DNA of 64,000 nt from an uncultured Desulfobulbaceae bacterium. GTDB taxonomy: Bacteria > Desulfobacterota > Desulfobulbia > Desulfobulbales > BM004. Below, in pieces: positions 38,151 through 56,905 of this stretch. Position 1 is the stretch's first letter. Every line of letters starts with the position of its first letter. The translations under genes and the position numbers were made by a program. A model generated the notes under the pieces. The model searched no databases. It saw only the letters and a program-made list of their open reading frames with translations, and was not told where the DNA came from. The stretch is taken from NCBI GenBank assembly GCA_945787325.1, contig CALZHP010000003.1:6070-70069 (forward strand), written 5' to 3'.

Positions 38151-40721
38151 ATGAGCAAAGATATTTCTTCAGAAGACATTGAAATAATTCAAGACTTTAT
38201 CCAAGAAAGTCATGACATGCTTGATCAATTGGAACCAACGATTATTGAACTTGGTGAGAGTTGTCAAAGTGTGAACTGCTGGGAAATCCTTAAGTGTGAA
38301 AGTGATGACTGCCACCGACAAGGAAAAGAAATAGATATTCCCTGCTGGCTGCACACCGGTTATGTGGGAAACGGTCTTGGTATATGTACCCACGGCAGTT
38401 CTGAGGCCGAATGTCTGTCTTGCCAGGTCTTTGTAATGACAAACGGAGATACTGAAACAATGAACGCCATATTCCGTTTGTTTCATTCAATGAAAGGGAG
38501 TGCCGGGTTCCTTGAGTTCGACAATATTTCTCGCAGCGCGCATGCGGCTGAAAACCTGCTGGATTTGATCCGTTCCGGCAACATTCAAATGGTGCCAGAA
38601 CATGTTGATCTTCTCTGCAAAGCATGTGACTTTGCCAATGAAGCTCTCGACTACGTAGAGGAACATTTTAACGACGAAGGTATGGCTGAAAAAGCAGAAG
38701 AAATTACTTCCCTTCTTAGAGATGCTATTGAAGATGCTCAAAACAGGGCAAAATTTATTCAGGAAGATACTGTTCAACAAGGCAAGAAAAACGATACCCA
38801 TAGCTCTGATGAAAAAGCATCTGCTTCTGAAGAGTCTGAGCCAGATCAGCAGGATCTGATTGGTCCGGAAATGATAGAGACATTCGTGCTTGATGCTGAA
38901 GATTTACTCAGAAGGGTAGAGCTGAATCTTTTAAAATTAATTGAACAGCCGAGCGATGAGATCATTTTAGCAGATCTTTTCAGAGAGATGCACACTTTTA
39001 AAGGGAATTGCGGATTCCTAAACCTTGGAGACTTTGAGAGATTAAGCCACAAGGTAGAAAGTGTACTTGGGGAATATAAGGAAGGAGATGTCCTAACAGA
39101 TAGTGATTCCACTCAACTTCTCATCAATATTGTAGATACAATGCAATCTGGTGTTGCCGATTTTTCTTCTGATGGCGATGGTACAATAGATCAGTTGGAA
39201 ATGCATCTCAAGTCGTTGGACGACCTTCTTCAAAAAATAAGCAATGCCCCCCCTCCAATACCAGATGATGCACCACGCCTGGGTGAATTGCTCGTAGAAA
39301 AAGGAATTATTAATTTTGAAGATATCGAAGAGGCACTGGAAGAACAGCAGAAACCTCTTGGAGATATCTTGATTGATATGGGGAAGGTTACTCCCGAGCT
39401 GATAACAACTACTCTAAAAGAACAACATAAAATTATTTCGCAGGATGCAGATAAAAAAGGGAAACCGAAGCCAAGATCTTTACCTGTAAAACGCCAAGAC
39501 ATAAGAGTTGATCTTGAAAAGCTCGACAACCTAATAAATCTTATCGGCGAGATGGTTATCGCCGAAAACATGTTAGTTCACAACCCCGATCTGGAAGGAA
39601 TGGAGTTGGAGAACTTCAATAAGGCCGCCCAACAGATGGGTAAGCTTGTCCGTGAGCTGCAGGAGATGGCCATGATAATCAGGATGATTCCTGTGTCGGG
39701 TCTATTCAGGCGAATGATTCGTCTGGTTCACGATCTGTCTACAAAGTCTGGGAAAAAGGTAGATCTGCAGCTTGCAGGTGAAGAAACAGAGATAGATAAA
39801 ACTGTCATAGAAACAATCACGGATCCCCTTGTCCATTTGTTGCGTAATTCTTTGGACCACGGTCTAGAACCTCCGGAAGAAAGAAACAAGGCGGGAAAAC
39901 CTGAAATAGGTGTACTTATCTTGTCGGCAAGACATGAAGAAGGCGAGGTCTGGATTACCCTGGAAGATGACGGCAGGGGACTTAACCGTGAAAAGATTAT
40001 CGCAAAAGCAATAAAGAACGGATTATTAGAAGAAGAATCTCCAGATTTGAGCGACAAGGAGGTTTATAATCTTATTTTTCAGCCGGGATTTTCAACTGCT
40101 GAAGTGATAACAAATGTATCTGGCCGTGGTGTGGGGATGGATGTTGTAAAGCAGAATCTTAACAAAATAAGAGGTAAGGTTGAGGTTCAGAGTAAACCCG
40201 GACGCGGCACTAAAATAACCCTTCGTATTCCCCTTACCCTGGCTATTATCGACGGAATGCTCGTTCGCGTAGGGTTATCTAAGTGTATTCTTCCCATCCT
40301 GAATATCCGGGAGGCTTTTTGTCCAAAAAGCAGTTCGATAACAATTACCCCAGATGGTGAAGAGATTGTTCGTGTCCGGGAAAACTTTTTTCCTGTCATA
40401 AGACTTCATGAAATTCTAGGTAAAGAACCGGACTGTATGGAGCTTGAGAAAGGAATTCTGATTGTTCTTGAGTATCAGGACAATAGCGCCTGCCTGTTCG
40501 TGGATGAAATAATGGGGCAGCAGCAGACGGTTATTAAGGGGTTGTCAGATTATATTGGCAGCATTCCAGTTATTTCAGGTTGTACTATCCTCGGCAACGG
40601 GCAAGTCTGTCTCATTCTTGACACTGGTAACCTGGTTGAACTGAAAGAAGGAAGTGAGCATGCCGCTGCACTGCAGGAACTGGCCCAACAACAAAGTGCG
40701 GCCGAACAGGCTGCTAATTAA
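38151..40721 (+). CDS. cheA: Chemotaxis histidine kinase CheA, non-canonical: Hpt(with Cys-rich insert)-Hpt-MshEN-like-P3-P4-P5
   Basis: It carries two Hpt phospho-His boxes, FRLFHSMKGSAGF (H112) and FREMHTFKGNCGF (H281). The dimerisation segment is DIRVDLEKLDNLINLIGEMVI. The HATPase region has the N box HLLRNSLDHG, G1 DDGRG and G2 GRGVGMD. The C-terminus is CheW-like. Confidence 0.93.
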   Translation: MSKDISSEDIEIIQDFIQESHDMLDQLEPTIIELGESCQSVNCWEILKCESDDCHRQGKEIDIPCWLHTGYVGNGLGICTHGSSEAECLSCQVFVMTNGDTETMNAIFRLFHSMKGSAGFLEFDNISRSAHAAENLLDLIRSGNIQMVPEHVDLLCKACDFANEALDYVEEHFNDEGMAEKAEEITSLLRDAIEDAQNRAKFIQEDTVQQGKKNDTHSSDEKASASEESEPDQQDLIGPEMIETFVLDAEDLLRRVELNLLKLIEQPSDEIILADLFREMHTFKGNCGFLNLGDFERLSHKVESVLGEYKEGDVLTDSDSTQLLINIVDTMQSGVADFSSDGDGTIDQLEMHLKSLDDLLQKISNAPPPIPDDAPRLGELLVEKGIINFEDIEEALEEQQKPLGDILIDMGKVTPELITTTLKEQHKIISQDADKKGKPKPRSLPVKRQDIRVDLEKLDNLINLIGEMVIAENMLVHNPDLEGMELENFNKAAQQMGKLVRELQEMAMIIRMIPVSGLFRRMIRLVHDLSTKSGKKVDLQLAGEETEIDKTVIETITDPLVHLLRNSLDHGLEPPEERNKAGKPEIGVLILSARHEEGEVWITLEDDGRGLNREKIIAKAIKNGLLEEESPDLSDKEVYNLIFQPGFSTAEVITNVSGRGVGMDVVKQNLNKIRGKVEVQSKPGRGTKITLRIPLTLAIIDGMLVRVGLSKCILPILNIREAFCPKSSSITITPDGEEIVRVRENFFPVIRLHEILGKEPDCMELEKGILIVLEYQDNSACLFVDEIMGQQQTVIKGLSDYIGSIPVISGCTILGNGQVCLILDTGNLVELKEGSEHAAALQELAQQQSAAEQAAN

Positions 40722-40915
40722 CGGGAAATGACCAATTAGAAATCAATTGAAGCAGGCTTAAGTCAATCAGTTTGGGGAAGTACTTAATTTAAAATCAATG
40801 GAATAACTGATAGACAGCTGTAGCCGAGAATTCAGGGGGGGAGGACCCCCAAATGCATTATTGTGGTCGTTCAGAAAAACTGCAATAAATGCGTAAAATT
40901 CAAGGGAGGATTTCG

Positions 40916-41710
40916 ATGAGTAAAAGAGTTATGAAATTGTTTTTTGTTACTATGAGTTTGGTCCTGTTTTTTTCCTATTCCGCAAATGCTGCAGAGGTCC
41001 TGTTGTGGGGGTCAACTACCTGTCAGAAGCGTTTTCTGGAGCCTGGCAAGGAAGCGCTCAATAATGCTACAGGAGTTAACATCAAGGTTTTTGGGGTTGG
41101 TACAGGTAAGGGAATGCTTGCCCTTTTTGAAGGAAAGACCAATGTGGCAATTTCTTCGAATACCTTGGATGAGAGTGTTAAATCCGCCCAGAAGGTTCGA
41201 AAAAAAACAGGCAAGGAGCCTGTGGAAGTGCCAGAAGGACTTCAGTATCATGAGATAACCAAAGACGTCATTGTCCCTATAGTACACAAAGAAAACACTG
41301 TCAATAAACTGAGCTGGGAACAGCTGGCAGATCTGAACACCGGTAAAATCACCAACTGGAAAGATGTCGGTGGCCCAGATATGTCTGTTCAGGTTGTAAC
41401 AAGCCATGCCGGCAGTTCAACAAAAGCAGTATTCCGGAAGATGGTCATGAAGAAGGCAGAGTATGATGCCGGTGCAATCGAGGTAAAAAGCACCAGGTTG
41501 GAGATAAACAAAGTATCCAAAAATAAAGGTGGTGTAGGTGCTGTCAGTAGCGGTTTTCATACGCTGAATCCCGGCAAAACAAAAGTAGTTGAAACAAACA
41601 CGATTCAGAGACCTCTCGGTCTTGTAACAATTGGTGATCCGGCTCCTGATGTACAGAAAATAATTGATTTTTTTCGTTCAGCAGAAGGCAAGAAACATAT
41701 ACTAGATTAA
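40916..41710 (+). CDS. Periplasmic substrate-binding protein, PstS/PBP-like-2 family
   Basis: Signal peptide ...LVLFFSYSANA|AE, then ...LLWGSTTCQKRFLEPGKEAL...IKVFGVGTGKGMLALFEGKTNVAISSNTL..., the pattern of phosphate-type type-2 binding proteins. There is a strong SD (GGGAGGA) before the ATG at 40916. Confidence 0.8.
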   Translation: MSKRVMKLFFVTMSLVLFFSYSANAAEVLLWGSTTCQKRFLEPGKEALNNATGVNIKVFGVGTGKGMLALFEGKTNVAISSNTLDESVKSAQKVRKKTGKEPVEVPEGLQYHEITKDVIVPIVHKENTVNKLSWEQLADLNTGKITNWKDVGGPDMSVQVVTSHAGSSTKAVFRKMVMKKAEYDAGAIEVKSTRLEINKVSKNKGGVGAVSSGFHTLNPGKTKVVETNTIQRPLGLVTIGDPAPDVQKIIDFFRSAEGKKHILD

Positions 41711-41769
41711 GGCCGAAATTGCGGAAAATGTAGTAATCTTTAGTGTTTTTGATAGTTACAATTATGATA

Positions 41770-41813
41770 GTTGATGCCTGCTTCGATACGATCCGTTTGA
41801 AGCAGGCATCAAC
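41770..41813 (+). other. Perfect 15-bp inverted repeat (stem-loop) between the binding-protein gene and mcp
   Basis: GTTGATGCCTGCTTC-(14 nt)-GAAGCAGGCATCAAC. No T-run follows, so this may be an attenuator, an mRNA stability element or a protein-binding palindrome. Confidence 0.5.
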
Positions 41814-41911
41814 AAGCGATTCAAAATATATCGAACGAGTGTGGCAGTTTACTCAGAAAGTCATCGGCAAAAAAACTTGGGATAGTTGGAAAACCTGATA
41901 GCGAGGAAGGC

Positions 41912-44356
41912 ATGAAGAATAGTTGGAAGCTAAACATTCAGGAGAAATTGATCGGTGGTTTCGGCATTGTTGCGTTTGTATGCGCTACTGTGGGCTATGT
42001 CGGGTGGTATGGGGCTTCTAAATTAGAAGAAAATATCGTTGTAACCGGTGAAGTCAGTGTACCTTCTTTGCAGGCAGTAATGAACCTTAAAGAAGCGCAG
42101 CTTTCTATTAAGGCATCTGGGCGAACTCTTCTTAACCCATCTCTTTCAGTTGAAAATAAGGCTAAAGAATACGCGGATATTGATGCCGCTTTCTCAAGGG
42201 CAAACAGCGCGCTTGAAATGTACGAAGCCCTTGACATCGATGGTAGTGAGAAAGCTTTGTGGCAAAATTTTCTGGCCAGCTGGAGTGAATGGAAAATGAG
42301 TATTGAAAATTTTATTACTCTCAGCAAGAAGAATGATGCATTAAATATCCACAACCCCCAAAAACTGATCAGCGATATAGAGAGAAATTTTGGTGAATAC
42401 AGAACCTGGGCCGCTGAAAGTGTAAAAGCTGTCCTCGAAAACAGTGAATTCTCAGGTAACCTGGACCCGGATAAATCACCCTTCGGGATATGGTTGTCAT
42501 CACTACAGGTCGATAACCAGGTTGTTCAGGAAGCTGTCATCAAACTAAAAAATCAGTTGATCAGTGTATATTCTTCGGTTGGTTCAATTGCAGATTTTTT
42601 ATCAATTGAAGAATATGAACTGGCCAAGGAAGTATATGTTTCAGAGGTGCTGCCAAGTATAGAAAGTATTCAGATCTATGTAGATAACCTCATGGCACCT
42701 ATTGAAGAATCCCTGGATCTATATGAGGAGATGGCTGTTTATGAGCGTGAAACCTTCTCAATATCACTGGCAAAAACAGAAAAACTCTTGAATCAGGTTG
42801 TGATGAAGACCAACGCAAAAGTCGCGGAAGATGTGAATGAAGGCCGTGCATTTGCTGGTAATATTACAATGGCTCAAATTGTTGTGGCAATGCTTGGTGC
42901 AATAGCAGCTTTTGTGTTTGGTTTTTTTCTTGCCCGCCATATAATTATTCCCATTAAAAAGGCTATTGGTGTTATAAGCAAGCTTTCACAGGGTAATACA
43001 GATGTGACTATGCCGGTTGGCAAATTTTTTAATTGTTCTGAAGAGAAAAAATGCGGTCATGAGGATTGTCCAAGTTATGGCAAAGTTGACCCCTGCTGGG
43101 TAACAAGTGGTTCTTTTGCGGCAATAAAACATTGTCCTCGAGCGAAAAGCGGTGAAGATTGCCGCTCATGTAATTTGTATGGCAAGCGCACTGAACTTGA
43201 AGAGCTGGGTTCAATTATCATGGCATTATCAAATATTATAAAAGAACGGGAAAATCTGGCGCTTGCAATTGCCGAGGGTGATCTGAATAAAGAAGTGGAA
43301 GTTGCATCTGACAATGATACACTCGGCAAAGCTCTCAAATTGATGCAGGATAGTCTCAGCGATATTATCGGCAAGGTCCAAATGGCGGGAGAGCAAATAG
43401 CTAACGGTTCTACTCAGATTTCCGGTTCCAGCCAGTCTCTTTCTGAAGGAGCGACCAAGTCTGCTGCGTCGCTTGAAGAGATGACCACGTCCATGTCGCA
43501 AATGGGCACGCAAACCAAGCGAACCGCCAAGCACGCAATTGAGGCTAATGATCTTTCCGAACAATCCAAAAATGCTGCCGAGGATGGTAATCAGCGAATG
43601 GCCGACATGGTTGAAGCCATGAAACAGATAAGTGCATCCAGCCAGAGTATCTCAAAGATAATAAAAGTGATTGATGAGATCGCTTTTCAGACAAATCTAC
43701 TTGCTTTGAACGCGGCTGTGGAAGCTGCGCGAGCAGGGCGGCATGGCAAAGGTTTTGCAGTAGTGGCTGAAGAGGTAAGGAACCTTGCTGCGCGAAGTGC
43801 CAAAGCTGCGCGGGAAACAGCTGACTTAATAGAGGGGTCAGTAAAAAGAACTGATAATGGTGCTGAAATAGCAGGTAAAACTGAGGATGCCCTGTTGGAT
43901 ATAGTGGGCAAAACCTCAAAGGTGTCTGACATTGTTGCAGAAATAGCGTCATTGTCTAACCAGCAGGCCCAGGGGATAGATCAGGTAAATTTGGGTTTGG
44001 AGCAGGTGGATAAAGTTACCCATGAAAATACAACCACTGCTGAAGAAGGAGCAGCCGCCGCTGAAGAGTTGTCCTCCCAGGCAAATCACCTGTATAATAT
44101 GTTACGGCATTTCAAACTTAAGGAAAATTATCGGAATAAAATCAGGACTGAACAGCCACAGCAATTAGAACCTTTAGAGGAGGTTCGGAATAATGACCAT
44201 AATGAACAGCCGCAGCTGATTGAACCTGTAAAGAAGGCGGTTGAAACATGGGGTGTGAATAGCGAGGAACCTGAAGAAAGTAATGAGTTTAAAGATGAAC
44301 CCCGTTTTCAGGATGATTTTATAGCGTTGGATGATAACGAATTTGGTAAGTACTAA
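41912..44356 (+). CDS. Methyl-accepting chemotaxis protein with a Cys-rich module inserted in its HAMP domain
   Basis: It has TM1, a periplasmic region of about 290 aa, and TM2 ([24 protein letters not shown]). The split HAMP is followed by a signalling domain, ...[44 protein letters not shown]... The C-terminus is a long acidic tail. Confidence 0.93.
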
Positions 44357-44485
44357 TTATATAGCGGAAGTGAACAACATAATTTAATAATAATGCTACA
44401 TAAGTCAAAGGATCGTAAACCATGAATATAAAGTGATTGTAGACTTAATATTCGATTATGCAGGACATGTTTGAGAGGAGTAAAT

Positions 44486-45010
44486 ATGGTGCAATATACC
44501 AGGGACGAAATGTTGGATGATGATTTTTACGGTGAAGATGAAGATACCCAGAAGGGAAAATTTTTAACATTTCACATGGCGAATGAGGATTATGGAATAG
44601 AGATCAAACATGTTACTGAAATAATTGGAATTCAAAATGTTACGGAAGTGCCGGATATGCCGGACTATGTCCGTGGTGTTATCAATCTGCGCGGCAAAGT
44701 AATACCCATAATGGATGTGCGTACCAGGTTCAAACTTCCCCCCCGGGAATACGACGAGCGCACCTGCATCATTGTTGTCAACATTGATGATAAGTCAGTG
44801 GGACTTGTAGTAGACAAGGTGAATGAGGTCGCGGATATTCCCGATGACCAGATAGAACCGCCTCCCAGGACAAAAAGAGAGGGAGGAGGGTATATCCAGG
44901 GTATGGGTAAGATTGACGAGGAAGTCAAGATACTGCTGGACGTCACTAAGCTACTTTATGAGGATGAACTTGAAGAGCTTGATGCCGTGTCCCAGAATTC
45001 CTCTGAGTAG
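44486..45010 (+). CDS. cheW: Coupling protein CheW
   Basis: ...FLTFHMANEDYGIEIKHVTEIIGIQNVTEVPDMPDYVRGVINLRGKVIPIMDVR... Start at MVQYT, with SD GAGGAG. Confidence 0.9.
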   Translation: MVQYTRDEMLDDDFYGEDEDTQKGKFLTFHMANEDYGIEIKHVTEIIGIQNVTEVPDMPDYVRGVINLRGKVIPIMDVRTRFKLPPREYDERTCIIVVNIDDKSVGLVVDKVNEVADIPDDQIEPPPRTKREGGGYIQGMGKIDEEVKILLDVTKLLYEDELEELDAVSQNSSE

Positions 45011-45149
45011 TAAAAGCAGTAATATATGTTCGTAAAATTGATTATGACAACTTTATAGGTTTGTCATTTATTTCAACTCATATCAATGTTAGAATGTCAC
45101 TATTATTCACAAAGATTGCGGACACTTGTTGTCTGAAAAGCTGAACGGT

Positions 45150-45992
45150 ATGAATGGATATCTGCTTAGCATTTCAGACGAAGAATTCCAATTAATGCGC
45201 TCTTTGATCTATGAGCGTTTCGGTATCAATCTCACCGAACAAAAACGTTCGCTGTTGATCGGGCGTCTCCAGAAGATAATCAAAACATCTGGATTTCATT
45301 CTTTTCAACAGTATTACGAACACATAATTAATTCCCAGAACGAACAGGCCCTCAGTAATCTGATTGACCGTGTTTCAACCAATCATACTTATTTCTACAG
45401 AGAGAAAGACCATTTTGATTACTTTCTTCAAACCGCATTGCCTAATGTCGTATCAAGACTAGAAGCAAAAGGTTCCCGAGAATTGCGAGTGTGGTGCGCC
45501 GGATGCTCGTCAGGTGAAGAACCTTATATGATTCTCATGCTGATGCAGAAATACTTTGGTATGGATTATTTGAAATGGGATGCAGGAGTTTTAGCCACTG
45601 ATATCTCTTTGAGAGCACTGAATACTGCTAAGGCAGGGATTTATAATCAGGAAAAAATCGATATGATTCCTGAGGAGCTCGTAAGTAAACATTTTTATAA
45701 GAGTGGCAAAAGTGAGTGGGTCGTAAAAGATTCATTAAAGAAAGAGGCTACCTTCCGCCGATTTAATTTAATGAATAGTCATTTTCCTTTTAAGAAGCCA
45801 TTTCAAATAATTTTCTGCAGGAATGTGATGATTTATTTTGATCAGCCGACCCGGGACAATCTTGTGAAAAAATTTTATCAATTCACGGATCCGGGTGGAT
45901 ATTTTTTTATCGGCCACTCAGAATCTCTAGGCCGTAGCCATGATCACTACCAATATGTAAAACCGGCCGTTTATCAGAAGAGGTATAAGTAG
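45150..45992 (+). CDS. cheR: Chemoreceptor methyltransferase CheR
   Basis: ...FQLMRSLIYERFGINL... and the SAM-binding VWCAGCSSGEEPY ...IFCRNVMIYFD. The start is uncertain (ATG at 45150 or TTG at 45126). Confidence 0.9.
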   Translation: MNGYLLSISDEEFQLMRSLIYERFGINLTEQKRSLLIGRLQKIIKTSGFHSFQQYYEHIINSQNEQALSNLIDRVSTNHTYFYREKDHFDYFLQTALPNVVSRLEAKGSRELRVWCAGCSSGEEPYMILMLMQKYFGMDYLKWDAGVLATDISLRALNTAKAGIYNQEKIDMIPEELVSKHFYKSGKSEWVVKDSLKKEATFRRFNLMNSHFPFKKPFQIIFCRNVMIYFDQPTRDNLVKKFYQFTDPGGYFFIGHSESLGRSHDHYQYVKPAVYQKRYK

Positions 45993-47054
45993 ATGCTTAA
46001 AAAAATACGTGTTCTTGTTGTTGATGATTCTTTGCTTGTCAGGCAAGTACTTACCAAGGGACTTTCCGCTGATCCAGCTATAGAAGTTGTTGGAGCTGCT
46101 GAAGATCCATATGTTGCCAGGGATAAGATTGTGGAGCTGAAGCCCGATGTCCTGACCCTGGATGTGGAGATGCCCCGCATGAACGGTGTTGATTTCCTTC
46201 GCCGACTAATGGCCCAGCGGCCCATGCCGGTTGTTATGGTAAGTTCTCTTACACAGAAAGGACAAAAAGTTACACTTGATGCTCTGGAGGCGGGTGCAGT
46301 GGATTTCGTTTCCAAACCATCTGTATCCGGTATCAGTGGACTAAGTGGGATGCTGACAGAGTTGCGGGTTAAGGTAAAAACAGCAGTTACGGCAAATCTT
46401 CTTCAGCTCAAAGAGAAAAAAGAACGGGCTCCTCAAGAATCGGTTTCTAAGGACAATGTTAGAGCACTTGCAGAGCTGGCTGGAAAAGTAGTTGCGATAG
46501 GAGCATCGACCGGTGGAACTGAAGCTTTAAATACAATTTTATCGCAGTTTCCGGCAACTATGCCGGGTGTTGTTGTTGTTCAGCATATGCCACCAGGATT
46601 CACCAAGATGTTTGCAGAAAACTTGAATAATGCCTGTGCTATGAAAGTGAAGGAAGCGGAAACAGGTGACAGAATAATGTCTGGACGTATCCTCGTTGCA
46701 CCGGGAGGTGTGCAGACTAAGGTAGTAGAAAAAGGGGGTGTCCTGCAGGTCTCTTGCGGTTCTTCGGAAAAGGTAAGCGGTCATTGCCCTTCTGTAGATG
46801 TAATGATGCAATCAGTAGCAGAAAGCGTTGGGGCAGATGCTGTTGGAGTCATGCTGACTGGAATGGGTAATGATGGTACCAAAGGAATGCTTGCCATGAA
46901 AAATGCCGGAGCTAAAAATATGGCTCAGGATGAAGCATCTTCAGTTGTTTTCGGTATGCCTAAACAGGCTTATGAGGCTGGAGGTGCAAAAGCACTTGTC
47001 CCCCTTAATAGGATATCGGCTAAAATTATCAGTTTTCTCCTGGAGAAACGTTAG
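45993..47054 (+). CDS. cheB: Chemoreceptor methylesterase/response regulator CheB
   Basis: REC domain (VLVVDDS..., DVLTLDVEMPRMNG) plus an esterase domain (IGASTGG..., ...HMPPGFT..., ...GMGNDG). Confidence 0.94.
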   Translation: MLKKIRVLVVDDSLLVRQVLTKGLSADPAIEVVGAAEDPYVARDKIVELKPDVLTLDVEMPRMNGVDFLRRLMAQRPMPVVMVSSLTQKGQKVTLDALEAGAVDFVSKPSVSGISGLSGMLTELRVKVKTAVTANLLQLKEKKERAPQESVSKDNVRALAELAGKVVAIGASTGGTEALNTILSQFPATMPGVVVVQHMPPGFTKMFAENLNNACAMKVKEAETGDRIMSGRILVAPGGVQTKVVEKGGVLQVSCGSSEKVSGHCPSVDVMMQSVAESVGADAVGVMLTGMGNDGTKGMLAMKNAGAKNMAQDEASSVVFGMPKQAYEAGGAKALVPLNRISAKIISFLLEKR

Positions 47055-47539
47055 TGAGCGGAACCTTTCTAGGAATCGGCGATTATGCCGTCTCAAATGA
47101 GGCAGACTCCGTGTTGAAAACGTACCTTGGTTCTTGTGTTGCGGTTATCCTGCTTGATCCTATAACACGAACCGTTGGTATGGTGCACATAGCTCTGCCG
47201 GATTCAAGTCTAGATCCATCTAAGAAGGAATTATTACCTGGGTATTTTGCAGACTCAGGTATTGCTGTTCTTTTCAACAAGATGAAAGAGTACGGCTTCA
47301 GTGAAAAAAGCCATAAACTTATTGTAAAACTGGTGGGAGGGGCATCGGTAATGTCTCAATGTGATGTTTTTAACATTGGATTAAGAAATGTTGAGGCTGC
47401 AAAAAGTATACTGAAATCCATGGGTTTACATATATCATCAGAAGATGTTGGAGAGAAATACAGCAGATCTGTTGCCATTGAGGTGGATACAGGAAAGGTA
47501 ACTGTAAGCAGCCCAGGTCGCGGCCAGTGGGATATATGA
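47054..47539 (+). CDS. cheD: Chemoreceptor glutamine deamidase CheD
   Basis: ...LKTYLGSCVAVILLDP...GMVHIALP... with catalytic Cys/His contexts. It overlaps the cheB stop. Confidence 0.88.
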   Translation: MSGTFLGIGDYAVSNEADSVLKTYLGSCVAVILLDPITRTVGMVHIALPDSSLDPSKKELLPGYFADSGIAVLFNKMKEYGFSEKSHKLIVKLVGGASVMSQCDVFNIGLRNVEAAKSILKSMGLHISSEDVGEKYSRSVAIEVDTGKVTVSSPGRGQWDI

Positions 47540-47549
47540 GGTAGAAAGT

Positions 47550-48416
47550 ATGAACAAGAAACTTGTTAATAAAGAAATCATGATTGCTATCAAAAGCGCA
47601 CCGCTTCTTTCTCCAAGCGTTTATGATATTATAAGAAAAATAGCAGAACCTGACCACAGCCTGGCTGATGTGGTCAAGATTGTGAAGCATGATTCCGCAC
47701 TTACAGCAAGATTATTGAGGGTAGTTAACTCAGCGGCTTTTGCGACGTTAGATCCGGTTAATTCTGTTGACCGGGCTATATCATTACTTGGAGAACGTAT
47801 GGTTGTCGGTTTGGCTATATCAGAAAGTACAGGTAATTTATTCCATAAACCTCTAGAGGGCTACGATGGCAAAAAAGGTGACCTTTGGAGTCATGATCTT
47901 ATTGTTGCTTATGCAACAAGAAAAATAGCGGGACTAGCTAAGATTAATATCGATCCCGAACTGGCATTTACCGGTGGGTTATTACATGATATCGGCAAGG
48001 CGATTATTTCCGATTTTCTAAAAGGAACTGCGGAGGAGTTACTGCAGAGTATTGATAAAGGTCATGTCGATGATTATGCCTCGGCCGAAAAAAATTTCCT
48101 GGGAGTCAACCACCAGGCGGTGGGTTACGAACTTGCCATGAACTGGAATTTACCTGAATCAATCCAACAGATGATCCTCCATCACCACAGCCCTGCCGAA
48201 TCGGATGATGAGTTCAAACCTTATGTTTATGCAGTTCATTTAGGAGATATTATATCAATGATGTCCGGATTTGGTACCGGCACAGATATTATGCAATATA
48301 ACCTGGACCAGGGATATGAAGAGTATTTTAATCTTAAATTTGAATCGATAGCATCTGTAATGCTGGAAATTAAGGATAAATGTAAAAGAGTAATTGGGGT
48401 GGAGGACTGCATGTAG
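47550..48416 (+). CDS. HDOD domain protein
   Basis: ...ADVVKIVKHDSALTARLLRVVNSAAF... and ...GGLLHDIGKAIIS... are HDOD hallmarks. Confidence 0.8.
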   Translation: MNKKLVNKEIMIAIKSAPLLSPSVYDIIRKIAEPDHSLADVVKIVKHDSALTARLLRVVNSAAFATLDPVNSVDRAISLLGERMVVGLAISESTGNLFHKPLEGYDGKKGDLWSHDLIVAYATRKIAGLAKINIDPELAFTGGLLHDIGKAIISDFLKGTAEELLQSIDKGHVDDYASAEKNFLGVNHQAVGYELAMNWNLPESIQQMILHHHSPAESDDEFKPYVYAVHLGDIISMMSGFGTGTDIMQYNLDQGYEEYFNLKFESIASVMLEIKDKCKRVIGVEDCM

Positions 48417-48496
48417 ATCCATTTAACGTTCTTAATATGATCGGTATCTGCATTTATTTAGCTGTAATTATACGTCAACCATAGGCGGAGGTAAGC

Positions 48497-48868
48497 ATGG
48501 GTAAGAAGGTATTAATTGTTGATGATTCAAGCACTATGCGTAAGATCGTAACCAGGTGCCTGAGACAGGCGGGTCTGGAGTTCGAAGAGGTACTGGAAGC
48601 AGGAGACGGCCAGGAAGCCCTCCAGGTTCTTCAGGGTGCAAAAGTGGATCTTATTTTAAGCGACATAAATATGCCCAATATGGATGGTTTGGCATTCCTC
48701 AAGGAAAAAGCAGGTAATGATGCAATCAAAGACATTCCTGTGGTTATGATATCAACTGAAAGTGGGGACGATATTGTAACTGAAGCCAAAAAATTGGGTG
48801 CTGCAGGCAGTATAAAGAAACCATTTACGCCAGATCAGGTCAACGAGACAATAATGCCGTTAATATAG
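48497..48868 (+). CDS. cheY: Response regulator CheY
   Basis: KVLIVDDSSTMRKI..., DLILSDINMPNMDG, ...VVMISTE..., ...IKKPF. All canonical receiver residues are present. Confidence 0.93.
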   Translation: MGKKVLIVDDSSTMRKIVTRCLRQAGLEFEEVLEAGDGQEALQVLQGAKVDLILSDINMPNMDGLAFLKEKAGNDAIKDIPVVMISTESGDDIVTEAKKLGAAGSIKKPFTPDQVNETIMPLI

Positions 48869-48887
48869 ACTTGATAAGGTAGTATAC

Positions 48888-49346
48888 ATGGTTGAACCAC
48901 AAGAGTTGATTAGCTTCACCCAAGAAATATTCTCTACGATGATCATGATGGATGTAAGGCCGGGTGAACCTATTACAGGAAAATATGAGTTTTTTCAATC
49001 TTCCATTACCGGTATGGTTGGTCTGGCAGGGAAATATAAAGGAATGATCGCTATTCATGTTCCCGACAATGTAGCAAAAACGATAACAGGAAACTTTCTT
49101 GGCTGTGGTGTTGAAGAGATTAATGAAGATGTCCATGATGCAATTGGAGAGCTAGCGAATATGTTAGGAGGTAGCATAAAAGCCTGCTTAGCTGAATCCA
49201 GTAAAGATATCGAGCTTTCATTGCCTACTACTGTTTTAGGGATGCAATATTCCCTGCAGAGTCAGGATGATGTTAAGGTTATGACAATTCCTTTCAGCGT
49301 TGAAGGTGGTGAGTTTCTGGTTGAAATACAGTTGCAAGAAAAATAA
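48888..49346 (+). CDS. cheX: CheX-type CheY-P phosphatase (CheC/CheX/FliY family)
   Basis: A single active-site motif, D-x3-E-x2-N (DAIGELANMLGG), followed by a Pro about 22 residues later. CheX-like size (152 aa). Confidence 0.8.
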   Translation: MVEPQELISFTQEIFSTMIMMDVRPGEPITGKYEFFQSSITGMVGLAGKYKGMIAIHVPDNVAKTITGNFLGCGVEEINEDVHDAIGELANMLGGSIKACLAESSKDIELSLPTTVLGMQYSLQSQDDVKVMTIPFSVEGGEFLVEIQLQEK

Positions 49347-49446
49347 TTACTGATTGATATGATGTTTAATAATGTCAAATATACAAATCGAGTTCAATAA
49401 CTTTATAAGTAGCGACATTATAATCATGGCTTCATAATAGGAGACA

Positions 49447-50586
49447 ATGAAAGCAAGGGAGACAATTGATAACACACTGGATGCGGCGAAATTGCATCTA
49501 CAGAAAGAAGTTGGTGATCTTCTTGGACACAAAGTCAGTCTATCAGATCCCAGGGGCCGCTTCATTTCCAAGGTGAACTTTTTTTCAAGATTCGAAAGTA
49601 AAAACGTTCTTGTCAAATTTGAGGTAAGTGGTGAACTGGAAGGGATTATATATCTTAATTTTTCTATGAAAGATGCTATTACACTTGGCGGTACGCTCAT
49701 AATGCTTCCCGATGCTGAACTGGAGGCACACATCTCTAAAGGTGAATTTGGTGAGGATGAAGCAGATGCATTTGGTGAAATAACAAATATCATTTGCGGT
49801 CTCTACACGAAAAGTTTTACTGAGCAATTTCCCCAAAAAATCCATTTTAAAAAAACGGACCTTGTAGTTTTCCAACCATCTGAAATAGATATTGATTCTC
49901 CCGACCCTATTCCGGACGTAGGTTACTATTTGGTATCTTTTCCAATGGTTCTCGGGGAAAAACAACTTGGTGAATTTGATACCCTATTTCCTGCAGAATT
50001 GTTCGGAATGGAGTTTGTTGAAGAACAAGGCGTCGCAGAGAAAGTTCAGGGTGAAGAGGGTGAAAAGCAGGCGGAACCAGCGGCTTCAGATGATGGGATA
50101 ACAGAGTCCCCGCCGACTGATGTTGGAGCATCAGAAACTGAACTGGGGGCTCCTGCAGCCCAGGAAGATGCAGCAGTGACTCCTGCTCAAGACGTAAGCG
50201 CTTCTGCTGCAATAAATCAGGAAAGCACCCGAGTGATCATACTTGCAGATGAAGTCCAGGACGCTCAACCCTTTATGAGTACACTTCAGGAATGCGGGTT
50301 CGAGCCGAATATTATGAATTTTAATGATAATATAAAGGATGTTGTCGCCCAGGGAGTACGCGGAATTTTTATTATCTTGAACGAAGTGAACGAGCAGGGT
50401 ATGGCGGCTCTAATAAAAATAAGCTCAGCCTGTAGTGGTGGTTATCCACTTGTAATAGCAGGGCCGGAATGGACGCGAAAAACTGTTATGCAGGCTGTTA
50501 AATATGGTGCCTGTGACATAGTTATGACCCCGGCGTCACCTGATGAAATAAAAGGAAAAATTTGCCAGCACTTCGGAAGCGTCTAA
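49447..50586 (+). CDS. CheC-like domain - acidic linker - degenerate receiver (pseudo-REC) fusion protein
   Basis: A D-x3-E-x2-N motif is present (DAFGEITNIICG, codons 107-114). A Glu/Ala/Pro-rich linker of about 70 aa follows. The C-terminal 120 aa have a REC fold pattern (VIILADE..., GIFIILNEVN, PLVIAGP, DIVMTP), but Asn, Ala/Gly and Thr replace the phospho-Asp, Thr/Ser and Lys. Confidence 0.65.
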   Translation: MKARETIDNTLDAAKLHLQKEVGDLLGHKVSLSDPRGRFISKVNFFSRFESKNVLVKFEVSGELEGIIYLNFSMKDAITLGGTLIMLPDAELEAHISKGEFGEDEADAFGEITNIICGLYTKSFTEQFPQKIHFKKTDLVVFQPSEIDIDSPDPIPDVGYYLVSFPMVLGEKQLGEFDTLFPAELFGMEFVEEQGVAEKVQGEEGEKQAEPAASDDGITESPPTDVGASETELGAPAAQEDAAVTPAQDVSASAAINQESTRVIILADEVQDAQPFMSTLQECGFEPNIMNFNDNIKDVVAQGVRGIFIILNEVNEQGMAALIKISSACSGGYPLVIAGPEWTRKTVMQAVKYGACDIVMTPASPDEIKGKICQHFGSV

Positions 50587-56434: not shown

Positions 56435-56905
56435 ATGATATCCGATAAATCATCAATATGTTCTTCCTTATCCGAGGAAATCGGTTCAGTATTCAGTTTT
56501 TTAACAAATGAAGAGGTAGAGGATCTTTGCTGTTACCTCGAAATGAAAGAATGCTCCGCAGACCAAGTTTTGTTGAAACAGGGAGAAGCTGGTGAATATC
56601 TGGGCTTCCTTTTAAGTGGAAGGCTGGCAGTAAAAAAAGAAACAGGATTTCCAGGTAAGTACGTAATTCTTGCCATTCTAGAAGCCGGTACAATGGTTGG
56701 AGAAATTGCTGCAGTATTGAAATGGGCCCGTTCAGCAACTGTTGTAGCCCTTGAGGATTGCAAGTTATTAACCATGTCTGTTGAGAACATGGCACGGGTA
56801 AGCGAAGAAAAGCCAGCCCTTGCAATTAAACTGTATAAAAGAATTATTTATATAATCAGCCTTAGGCTGCGTAAATCCGGAGAAAGATTATCCCATTTGT
56901 TGTAA
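56435..56905 (+). CDS. Stand-alone cyclic-nucleotide-binding domain protein
   Basis: ...FLTNEEVEDL...LLKQGEAGEYLGFLLSGRLAV... and the phosphate-binding cassette GEIAAVLKWARSATVVA. Confidence 0.8.
   Translation: MISDKSSICSSLSEEIGSVFSFLTNEEVEDLCCYLEMKECSADQVLLKQGEAGEYLGFLLSGRLAVKKETGFPGKYVILAILEAGTMVGEIAAVLKWARSATVVALEDCKLLTMSVENMARVSEEKPALAIKLYKRIIYIISLRLRKSGERLSHLL

Follow-up and report, generated by a model that had tools for sequence, protein, structure and literature searches.

MshEN domains in pilus ATPases and chemotaxis kinases

The minimal subdomain for c-di-GMP binding, MshEN_N, was originally described for Vibrio cholerae MshE (Wang et al. 2016, Nat Commun 7:12481, PMC5013675) and consists of two 24-residue motifs in tandem with the pattern (R/K/L)LGxxhhxxGhhxxxxLxxxLxxQ. 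In the N-terminal domain of MshE (5HTL), which matches PF05157 (T2SSE_N), these motifs make up a four-helix bundle clamping an extended c-di-GMP molecule, and the MshEN_C subdomain and then the T2SS/T4P ATPase follow. Isolated MshEN_N (aa 1-62/65) binds c-di-GMP at 0.35 μM, and the exchanges G11L and G40I abolish binding in VcMshEN (PMC5013675). Further described domains are GSPII-B and GSPII-C of the pilus ATPase PilF of Thermus thermophilus (8PDK, 8PKZ, 6EJF; Neissner et al. 2024), with spacers of 3–7 residues and a C-terminal α/β subdomain. GSPII-B, in which motif position 1 is occupied by Lys and Leu instead of Arg, binds c-di-GMP with 6 nM affinity, and for GSPII-C, in which Pro335 opens motif II, the value is ~0.3–0.5 μM (PMC11731258); an Arg at this first position is therefore not required.

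The CheA-MshEN_N fusion has been known since 2016, including c-di-GMP binding measured on a CheA fragment. Wang et al. 2016 list the architecture in their supplement, and for aa 261-390 of Aeromonas veronii CheA (EKB11881) a KD of 2.6 μM for c-di-GMP was obtained by ITC (PMC5013675, Supplementary Tables 4 and 6). Also, CheA1 of Desulfovibrio vulgaris (DVU1594) was aligned in Supplementary Fig. 3c of this study (PMC5013675); the assignment of this protein as CheA1 follows PMC3944678, according to which a cheA1 mutant was without soft-agar phenotype. Other c-di-GMP inputs to chemotaxis are MapZ-CheR1, PilZ-containing chemoreceptors such as Cbp1, and V. cholerae PlzC; the described routes are PilZ adaptors, receptors and the motor. 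These PilZ-type inputs have another fold and enter via methyltransferase, receptor or motor, whereas the locus analyzed here has a receptor-like domain inside the kinase polypeptide, which would be the most direct c-di-GMP route into chemotaxis. Our literature search found no paper testing the effect of a CheA-embedded MshEN_N on the kinase. Since both the fusion and its c-di-GMP binding date from 2016, the locus represents an extension rather than a new principle, adding a well-conserved, P2-less, short-spacer CheA subfamily.

Domain layout of the P2-less CheA and its operon

The window, i.e. the whole 64-kb stretch of DNA that was analyzed, contains a cheA ORF at 38151..40721 (all features given are on the + strand), encoding 856 aa plus stop in the order Hpt1 - Hpt2 - MshEN_N - P3 - P4 - P5. 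Hpt1 (P1a; aa ~7-172; 38169..38666; best Pfam Hpt stretch 100-159) carries the phosphorylatable His112 (HSMKGSAG), which is invariant in alignment A1, and its helices lie at 7-37, 101-120, 124-141 and 149-172 in the AlphaFold2 model. Hpt2 (P1b; aa 239-365; 38865..39245), the second Pfam Hpt stretch, carries His281 (HTFKGNCG) and has modelled helices at 239-265, 270-289, 293-310, 318-339 and 349-365. The P3 dimerisation domain (H-kinase_dim; aa 449-509; 39495..39677; PF02895, E 7.7e-19), the ATP-binding kinase domain P4 (HATPase_c; aa 558-696; 39822..40238; PF02518, E 1.4e-16) and the CheW-like P5 domain (aa 702-830; 40254..40640; PF01584, E 2.2e-23) follow. Hpt, P3, P4 and P5 were all above the Pfam cutoffs and NCBIfam CheA models matched too, as expected for a CheA kinase.

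The gene is the first of a complete che operon adjoined by the flagellar regulon. The remaining operon (40889..50586; Pfam and NCBIfam) encodes a PstS-like binding protein, an MCP (4HB plus a Cys-rich insert), cheW, cheR, cheB, cheD, an HDOD protein, cheY, cheX and a CheC/X-like protein. Because (MshEN_N)2-CheX fusions are known, the CheC/X-like gene (49447-50586) was examined as a possible second MshEN protein of the window and gave no match.

A CheY-binding P2 domain between P1 and P3 is found in the E. coli type of CheA and is not universal. The sequence-only reading had seen no recognisable P2 here, in agreement with Pfam, which yielded only two Hpt, H-kinase_dim, HATPase_c and CheW, and with the AlphaFold2 model, in which only helix and coil and no β-strand precede residue 512. 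Orthologues are likewise P2-less; this lineage spans Desulfuromonadales, Desulfobulbales and Nitrospinota. Among species-representative genomes, the top match reached only 63% identity. The MshEN_N module occupies the place of P2 in textbook CheA, and it could for this reason be a nucleotide-independent protein-docking site replacing P2, for which CheY, CheX, the HDOD protein or the CheC/X-like protein encoded in the operon would be possible partners. We regard this as highly improbable, as an all-helical 50-residue bundle has no likeness to the α/β P2, the module is entirely missing from many orthologues, its conserved residues are the nucleotide-contact set, and the Aeromonas CheA holds P2 and MshEN_N together. 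On these grounds, P2 replacement for CheY docking was rejected.

Motif, family assignment and predicted fold of the module

The whole tandem module (39276-39425) comprises 50 residues of CheA. Half-motif 1 (aa 376-399; 39276..39347; RLGELLVEKGIINFEDIEEALEEQ; predicted helices α1 and α2) is connected via the two-residue spacer Q400-K401 (39348..39353) to half-motif 2 (aa 402-425; 39354..39425; PLGDILIDMGKVTPELITTTLKEQ; predicted helices α3 and α4). Thereby, both 24-residue copies were found exactly at the residues given in the sequence-only reading, which had also correctly described copy 1 as satisfying all fixed positions of the published motif with the sole exception of Ile for Leu at position 17, and copy 2 as weaker and without the leading Arg. 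In copy 2, position 1 has Pro instead of Arg, position 11 is Lys and position 17 is Ile. Eleven of the 14 key positions are identical, two are conservatively exchanged (Ile for Leu) and one is changed (P402 for Arg); Pro at motif position 1 is permitted by the relaxed published pattern [RKPN] (Wang et al. 2016, PMC5013675). Scanning all six frames of the window with the relaxed motif revealed only the two CheA sites, while the amino-acid composition predicts ~4e-5 copy-1-type and ~1e-6 relaxed tandem matches for a window of this size. The tandem motif in CheA is no chance match.

The curated NCBIfam model NF053729 ('c-di-GMP_motif, MshE-related') matched aa 376-425 over model positions 1-53 of 53 (E 6.6e-15) with 54.7 bits at a cutoff of 38, and the isolated segment reached 59.3 bits. 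A match to PF05157, suggested earlier as a check, was not obtained at E ≤ 10 with either whole CheA or aa 356-445, unlike for MshE, and Pfam annotations precomputed for 120 homologues likewise lacked PF05157, while some homologues carry PF27543. The gap between the module and P3 is only 22 residues and the MshEN_C subdomain is therefore absent; as PF05157 covers the N and C subdomains together (~110–145 aa), its missing match is explained by this absence and is no evidence against the N-subdomain assignment. Among PDB sequences, the PilF GSPII domains matched best (E 3e-16 with the single sequence and 1e-28 with the profile). A homologue search with the 61-aa segment on its own yielded no candidates, and a profile search of 1.84 billion representatives gave 22,067 matches, with mostly multi-repeat proteins at the top of the list.

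The spacer is indeed only two residues long (Q400, K401) compared to five in canonical MshEN. HMMER places a three-residue gap here against all PDB homologues. Spacers among accepted MshEN_N members range from 1 to 15 residues with 5 as the commonest length, and diverse MshEN_N proteins included 131 cases with a five-residue and 13 with a two-residue spacer. Since the length varies among accepted members, five residues are taken as typical and not as strictly defining.

According to AlphaFold2, the module helices are located at 377-383, 389-397, 403-409 and 415-435 of CheA, and four helices are predicted in the models of both full-length CheA and the isolated segment (pLDDT 79). In a Foldseek search against the PDB, the best 11 matches were all c-di-GMP-bound MshE or PilF GSPII-B (rmsd 1.0–1.6 Å, probability 1.00); the best structural match was V. 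cholerae MshE 5HTL (family-profile E 3e-11), on which the predicted segment superposes with an rmsd of 1.0 Å over 55 columns. The prediction is thus a four-helix bundle like that of MshE and PilF GSPII-B and not the plain linker helix considered as the alternative outcome. On both sides, the model shows low-confidence Pro/Lys-rich linkers: a Pro-rich linker (APPPIPDDAP; 39246..39275; coil in both models) from Hpt2 to the module, and a 22-residue Lys/Pro-rich linker (39426..39491; pLDDT <50 for 433-452) from the module to P3. The curated HMM, the homology to c-di-GMP-bound domains, the predicted fold and the conserved Gly and Gln positions agree with the proposed MshEN_N-type identity; together, sequence and model support that CheA aa 376-425 is a genuine MshEN_N-type and putative c-di-GMP-binding module.

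Like A. veronii CheA, the CheA of the window has an MshEN_N-only module directly upstream of P3. In A. veronii CheA, one Hpt and a CheY-binding P2 precede the module, the first motif is without Arg (AMLG) and the spacer has ~9 residues, whereas the CheA of the window has two Hpt domains, no P2 and a spacer of 2, with half 2 starting as K-P-L-G. CheA1 of D. vulgaris, likewise from a sulfate reducer, has an MshEN_N-like tandem, a short spacer ('EEQR----PIELL') and a second half beginning with Pro, but this half is without the Gly of 'hG' (PIELL). PilF GSPII-C, although part of a pilus ATPase and not of a kinase, resembles half 2 in its K-P-L-G motif and has 'GK' after the turn.

Conservation and the likely ligand

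Among 150 unique CheA modules, conservation in half 1 is 90% for G378, 94% for G385 and 88% for Q399, and in half 2 93% for P402, 94% for G404, 99% for L407, 94% for G411 and 88% for Q425; position 401 is basic (K/R) in 97%. Most orthologues, for example those of Desulfuromonas sp. AOP6 and Pelovirga terrestris, carry the module, and most share its 2-residue spacer and a second half opening with "(K/R)-P-h-G"; in the sequences compared, the short spacer and the Pro at the head of copy 2 are conserved hallmarks of this CheA subfamily. The module-to-P3 linker has a constrained length in the family (median 22, interquartile range 20–25.5 residues). About one quarter of the orthologues, for example that of Geoalkalibacter, have a Pro/Ala-rich linker of like length instead of the module; in 37 such orthologues, the distance from the Hpt2 His to P3 is similar (~150 vs ~159 residues). 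Some orthologues carry three half-motifs. In Geothermobacter orthologues, the helices are kept while the Gly and Gln residues are lost; therefore, retention of the module does not require the site to be intact.

This clearly degenerate version and the orthologues managing with a simple linker would fit a degenerate MshEN_N without nucleotide binding, left only with a role as a folded spacer or in packing within the tether between Hpt and P3. For such degeneration there is precedent in the XpsE/GspE N-domains, which lost c-di-GMP binding (PMC5013675). Moreover, the spacer is 3 residues shorter than in every solved binder and rare among MshEN_N generally, and the equivalent of R38 is Pro, R38G being among the changes listed for the non-binding XpsE (PMC5013675). 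However, only one of eight XpsE-type disabling changes is present, and G378, G404 (the equivalents of the residues exchanged in G11L and G40I), Q399 and Q425, which serve ligand contact and not the fold, are conserved to 88–94%. The module also exceeds the curated NF053729 cutoff, functional binders without Arg or with Pro at position 1 are known (PMC11731258), and the predicted fold matches the ligand-bound 5HTL. Hence, we consider loss of binding rather unlikely; the short spacer and the missing Arg in copy 2 are real caveats, yet not disqualifying.

Relatives of Geobacter and Desulfuromonas make prominent use of 3′,3′-cGAMP as a messenger. The module family occurs mainly in Desulfuromonadales and relatives, and its halves are consistently asymmetric (R-L-G vs K/R-P-h-G), which would suit an asymmetric ligand, so that binding of another cyclic dinucleotide, most plausibly 3′,3′-cGAMP, was considered. 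VcMshEN_N binds cGAMP, albeit weakly (KD 0.33 mM; PMC5013675), the affinity of VcMshEN for c-di-GMP being at least 100-fold better. The MshEN backbone amides fit guanine O6/N7 and clash with adenine N6 (PMC5013675), and the G-(D/E) dipeptide supplying those amides is kept in both halves. As also no adenine-specific feature could be identified and neither a Hypr-GGDEF gene nor a cGAMP riboswitch was found nearby, this specificity appears improbable for the module.

A possible ligand-responsive tether in CheA

The reading that we prefer, with a probability of about 60%, is that the MshEN_N module acts as a c-di-GMP-binding, ligand-responsive tether steering the CheA phosphate flow. In this P2-less class of CheA, the MshEN_N-type four-helix module is built into the flexible tether connecting the two Hpt domains to P3. 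By homology, each 24-residue half supplies the elements clamping one guanine of an extended c-di-GMP, namely the terminal Gln, a set of three aliphatic residues and the backbone amides that follow the 'hG' turn, and the module may bind c-di-GMP with roughly micromolar or better affinity. Counter-points in half 2 are the missing stacking Arg and the Lys at a core hydrophobic position. One step further, binding might rigidify and compact ~50 residues of the Hpt-to-P3 tether and alter the access of Hpt to the P4 ATP site and to CheY; with the Hpt reach changed by this compaction, the c-di-GMP level would govern how phosphate flows to the flagellar motor. In favour of a tether, the module lies between the low-confidence Pro/Lys-rich linkers, the length of its linker to P3 is constrained, and the span from the Hpt2 His to P3 changes little where a Pro/Ala-rich linker takes its place. 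That the module influences kinase activity we infer purely by reasoning, and MshE ATPase activity in vitro was barely changed by c-di-GMP (PMC5013675). The direction of such an effect is not readable from the sequence; our guess from general c-di-GMP logic is a dampened output at high c-di-GMP.

Counting against this reading, GGDEF, EAL, HD-GYP and PilZ patterns were absent from the window, as was any Rfam riboswitch, those for c-di-GMP included. Also, no c-di-GMP metabolism genes were conserved beside orthologues over 80 related loci, which is weak evidence as only regex patterns were used; one GGDEF-pattern ORF (L069) and a chance GGDEF string within the cheA ORF of L016 were found among these loci.

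In a more tentative and rather doubtful version, the short-spacer 'K/R-P-h-G' MshEN_N would be a ligand-gated tether in which either c-di-GMP or 3′,3′-cGAMP, the latter because the halves are asymmetric and because of the taxa concerned, folds and compacts ~50 residues between Hpt2 and P3 and directly switches kinase throughput. If so, the second messenger would act on the chemotaxis kinase itself and not on receptors, CheR or motor, and the Pro/Ala-linker orthologues would represent a constitutively 'unplugged' state. The orthologues with a Pro/Ala linker, a degenerate site or three half-motifs are natural controls and would provide a clean comparative system.

Separate from the MshEN finding, a Cys-rich insert (aa 38-95; 38262..38435) with 8 conserved Cys and two CW dipeptides interrupts Hpt1 of the same protein. 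The match to NF045718 (two_CW_domain) is weak, its 19.4 bits (E 0.001) not reaching the cutoff of 35, while the insert is modelled with a pLDDT of 84–93 (AlphaFold2) and its consensus is kept in alignment A1. The neighbouring MCP has an insert homologous to it (BLASTP E 6e-8).

Motif, domain context and predicted fold of the CheA module

The cheA open reading frame (38151-40721, plus strand) encodes 856 aa. Both half-motifs of the sequence-only reading were confirmed by translation at exactly their reported coordinates: copy 1 (RLGELLVEKGIINFEDIEEALEEQ) at aa 376-399 (39276-39347, plus strand) and copy 2 (PLGDILIDMGKVTPELITTTLKEQ) at aa 402-425 (39354-39425, plus strand), separated by a spacer of two residues. 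Compared with the published MshEN motif, the sole departure of copy 1 is Ile for Leu at position 17, and in copy 2 Pro replaces Arg at position 1, while positions 11 and 17 are Lys and Ile. When all six frames of the 64-kb window were scanned with a relaxed form of the motif, only these two sites were detected. Amino-acid composition predicts about 4e-5 matches of the copy-1 type and about 1e-6 tandem ones per window, and the tandem motif is not due to chance.

Pfam assigned two Hpt stretches, H-kinase_dim (P3, aa 449-509), HATPase_c (P4, aa 558-696) and CheW (P5, aa 702-830). Beyond P5, aa 825-856 (40623-40718) are predicted as a long helix with a Gln/Ala-rich tail, AALQELAQQQSAAEQAAN. No CheY-binding P2 domain was found by Pfam, and the AlphaFold2 model contains no beta-strand before residue 512; P2 is therefore absent, as had been supposed. 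The dedicated 53-position NCBIfam model NF053729 ('cyclic di-GMP-binding domain-containing protein, MshE-related') matched aa 376-425 end to end (E 6.6e-15; 54.7 bits, cutoff 38), and the NCBIfam model of NfrB, a c-di-GMP-activated glycosyltransferase, also aligned over this region. The proposed check against PF05157 (T2SSE_N) gave no match even at E<=10 with the isolated segment, because this family covers the N and C subdomains of MshEN and CheA has the N subdomain only; with only 22 residues between module and P3, the C subdomain is absent.

The segment is homologous to Thermus thermophilus PilF (E 3e-16), PilB proteins and the Vibrio cholerae MshE N-terminal domain (5HTL) in the PDB. A profile from 46 orthologous segments reached 1e-28 for PilF and 3e-11 for 5HTL, and the profile alignments always placed a 3-residue gap at the spacer. 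AlphaFold2 modelling of full CheA (73-sequence alignment, mean pLDDT 82.9) predicted four short helices (377-383, 389-397, 403-409 and 415-435; pLDDT 74-85) between disordered Pro/Lys-rich linkers (pLDDT <50 at residues 433-452). Using the isolated segment model (pLDDT 79), all 11 best Foldseek matches in the PDB were c-di-GMP-bound MshE or PilF GSPII-B (probability 1.00 each), 5HTL with an rmsd of 1.0 A across 55 columns; the E-values are merely 0.02-0.3 because the domain is tiny. The predicted four helices match MshE and PilF GSPII-B, and not the simple linker helix that would have spoken against an MshEN fold.

Distribution and conservation in related CheAs

The 120 best CheA homologues are 53-77% identical, with Desulfuromonas, Geoalkalibacter, Geothermobacter, Trichloromonas, Syntrophotaleaceae and Desulfobulbaceae among the named sources. 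The module occupies the same position in about 85 of them; in about 35, a Pro/Ala-rich low-complexity linker takes its place. A search of GTDB species representatives gave 80 related loci (L numbers), in Desulfuromonadales, Desulfobulbales, Desulfurivibrionaceae, Nitrospinota and Desulfomicrobiaceae; CheA was parsed from 76 (closest 63% identical), and the module is present in 69. Linker-type orthologues are of the Geoalkalibacter, Trichloromonas and Desulfuromonas versatilis types and include L014, L017, L018, L021, L022 and L041 as well as the homologous proteins P0007, P0017, P0032 and P0047.

The module lies in the tether between the Hpt domains and P3 and is interchangeable with this linker: from the Hpt2 His to P3 there are about 159 residues with the module versus about 150 in 37 orthologues that lack it. 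The connection from module to P3 is length-constrained (22 residues, interquartile range 20-25.5). A partner-docking site acting independently of nucleotide at this position is very improbable.

In 150 unique modules, G378 (90%), G385 (94%) and Q399 (88%) are conserved in half 1, and P402 (93%), G404 (94%), L407 (99%), G411 (94%) and Q425 (88%) in half 2; spacer position 401 is basic (K/R) in 97%. The conserved residues correspond to ligand-contacting or turn-making residues in 5HTL (PMC5013675). With this pattern, a non-binding structural relic is an unlikely explanation.

Several variants were observed. L031 and L039 have a 12-residue spacer. Three consecutive half-motifs, with 2 residues between halves and thus a 26-residue repeat, occur in orthologous CheAs L006 (aa ~364-449), L074 (aa ~326-409), L007, L009, L010, L075 and L076, raising the question which halves pair, and whether between dimer subunits. 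Geothermobacter-type degenerate modules (L002, L016, L019, L023; P0027, P0080, P0083, P0085, P0090) retain the helical pattern, with the diagnostic Gly and Gln lost (RLADLLV...TKSRPLVDALIGCE...), providing a natural 'dead-site' control.

Searching 1.84 billion representatives with a profile yielded 22,067 matches at E<=0.001. Among the best 149 of these, a 5-residue spacer dominates (131) and a 2-residue spacer is rare (13); they include five further CheAs with the order Hpt-(MshEN_N)n-P3-P4-P5 and no Pfam P2. The best-scoring proteins, P0121-P0127 (~1160-1180 aa), have uncharacterised multi-repeat architectures, with 9-11 MshEN-type half-motifs grouped into several clusters.

Putative c-di-GMP binding and kinase output

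The concept of MshEN_N in CheA is already in the literature, with binding data for one CheA: an Aeromonas veronii fragment (aa 261-390) bound with a KD of 2.6 uM by ITC (Wang et al. 2016, supplement; PMC5013675). The same supplement aligns the short-spacer DVU_1594, which is Desulfovibrio vulgaris CheA1 (PMC3944678). The isolated N subdomain of MshEN (62-65 residues) binds at 0.35 uM (PMC5013675). PilF GSPII-B, in which Lys and Leu replace both Arg, binds at 6 nM, and GSPII-C, whose motif II starts with Pro335 like half 2 here, at ~0.3-0.5 uM (Neissner et al. 2024, PMC11731258). Our CheA belongs to a distinct short-spacer, P2-less, double-Hpt subfamily, of which the spacer of 2 residues and the Pro that opens half 2 are hallmarks and not single-gene defects. 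Both caveats of the sequence-only reading, the short spacer and the missing Arg of copy 2, are real but not disqualifying, as published binders tolerate them.

NF053729, the solved relatives, the predicted fold and conservation support the assignment of aa 376-425 as an MshEN_N-type module, which probably binds c-di-GMP (about 0.7 for binding taken alone); a different dinucleotide, e.g. 3',3'-cGAMP, is an improbable ligand. Binding of c-di-GMP would rigidify or compact the tether, which may modulate how the Hpt domains are delivered to P4 and CheY and thereby render kinase output c-di-GMP-dependent. This effect, which could have either sign, is less certain than binding. Our literature search found no study on a c-di-GMP effect on a CheA, and the importance is modest unless kinase gating by c-di-GMP is demonstrated.

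Cys-rich insert and genomic context

A Cys-rich module of ~55 residues (aa 38-95, 38262-38435) is inserted in Hpt1 between helices A and B, with eight conserved Cys (C-x4-C-W...C-x4-C...P-C-W...C...C-x2-C) and a pLDDT of 84-93. The MCP encoded in the cheA operon (41912-44356) has a homologous copy (BLASTP E 6e-8) at ~43022-43180, in its HAMP-like cytoplasmic region. No Pfam family matched, the match to NCBIfam NF045718 'two-CW domain' was weak (19.4 bits, cutoff 35; E 0.001), and no mention of a 'two-CW domain' was found in the literature. The module occurs in 26 of 76 related CheAs, irrespective of the MshEN module. A possible role is that of a metal or redox sensor common to kinase and receptor, and the module is possibly more novel than the MshEN finding.

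cheA leads an operon continuing with a PstS-like binding protein, MCP, cheW, cheR, cheB, cheD, an HDOD protein, cheY, cheX and a CheC/X-like protein. Since a large flagellar regulon (flgBC, fliFGHIJ, fliK, flhA, flhF, flhG, flgFGI, flgKL, flagellin) adjoins it divergently, this CheA is a kinase of flagellar chemotaxis. Within the 64-kb window, no gene for a diguanylate cyclase, a phosphodiesterase or a PilZ protein and no riboswitch was found, and a pattern-based scan showed none conserved beside CheA orthologues.

The PstS-family periplasmic binding protein (PBP_like_2, 40889-41710) between cheA and MCP may be a ligand-binding partner of the chemoreceptor. An HDOD/HD-domain protein (47550-48416) is encoded between cheD and cheY. 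Of the 80 related loci, 33 have a crude HD-motif pattern in their flanks. In the 379-aa CheC/X-like protein (49447-50586), the N-terminal half weakly resembles CheC/CheX, the middle is acidic and of low complexity, and the C-terminal region is receiver-like by eye; the protein lacks the MshEN motif, although fusions of the (MshEN_N)2-CheX type are known. Directly after the mlaEFD-mlaA-mlaC cluster, a small stand-alone cyclic-nucleotide-binding protein (cNMP_binding) is encoded at 56435-56905.
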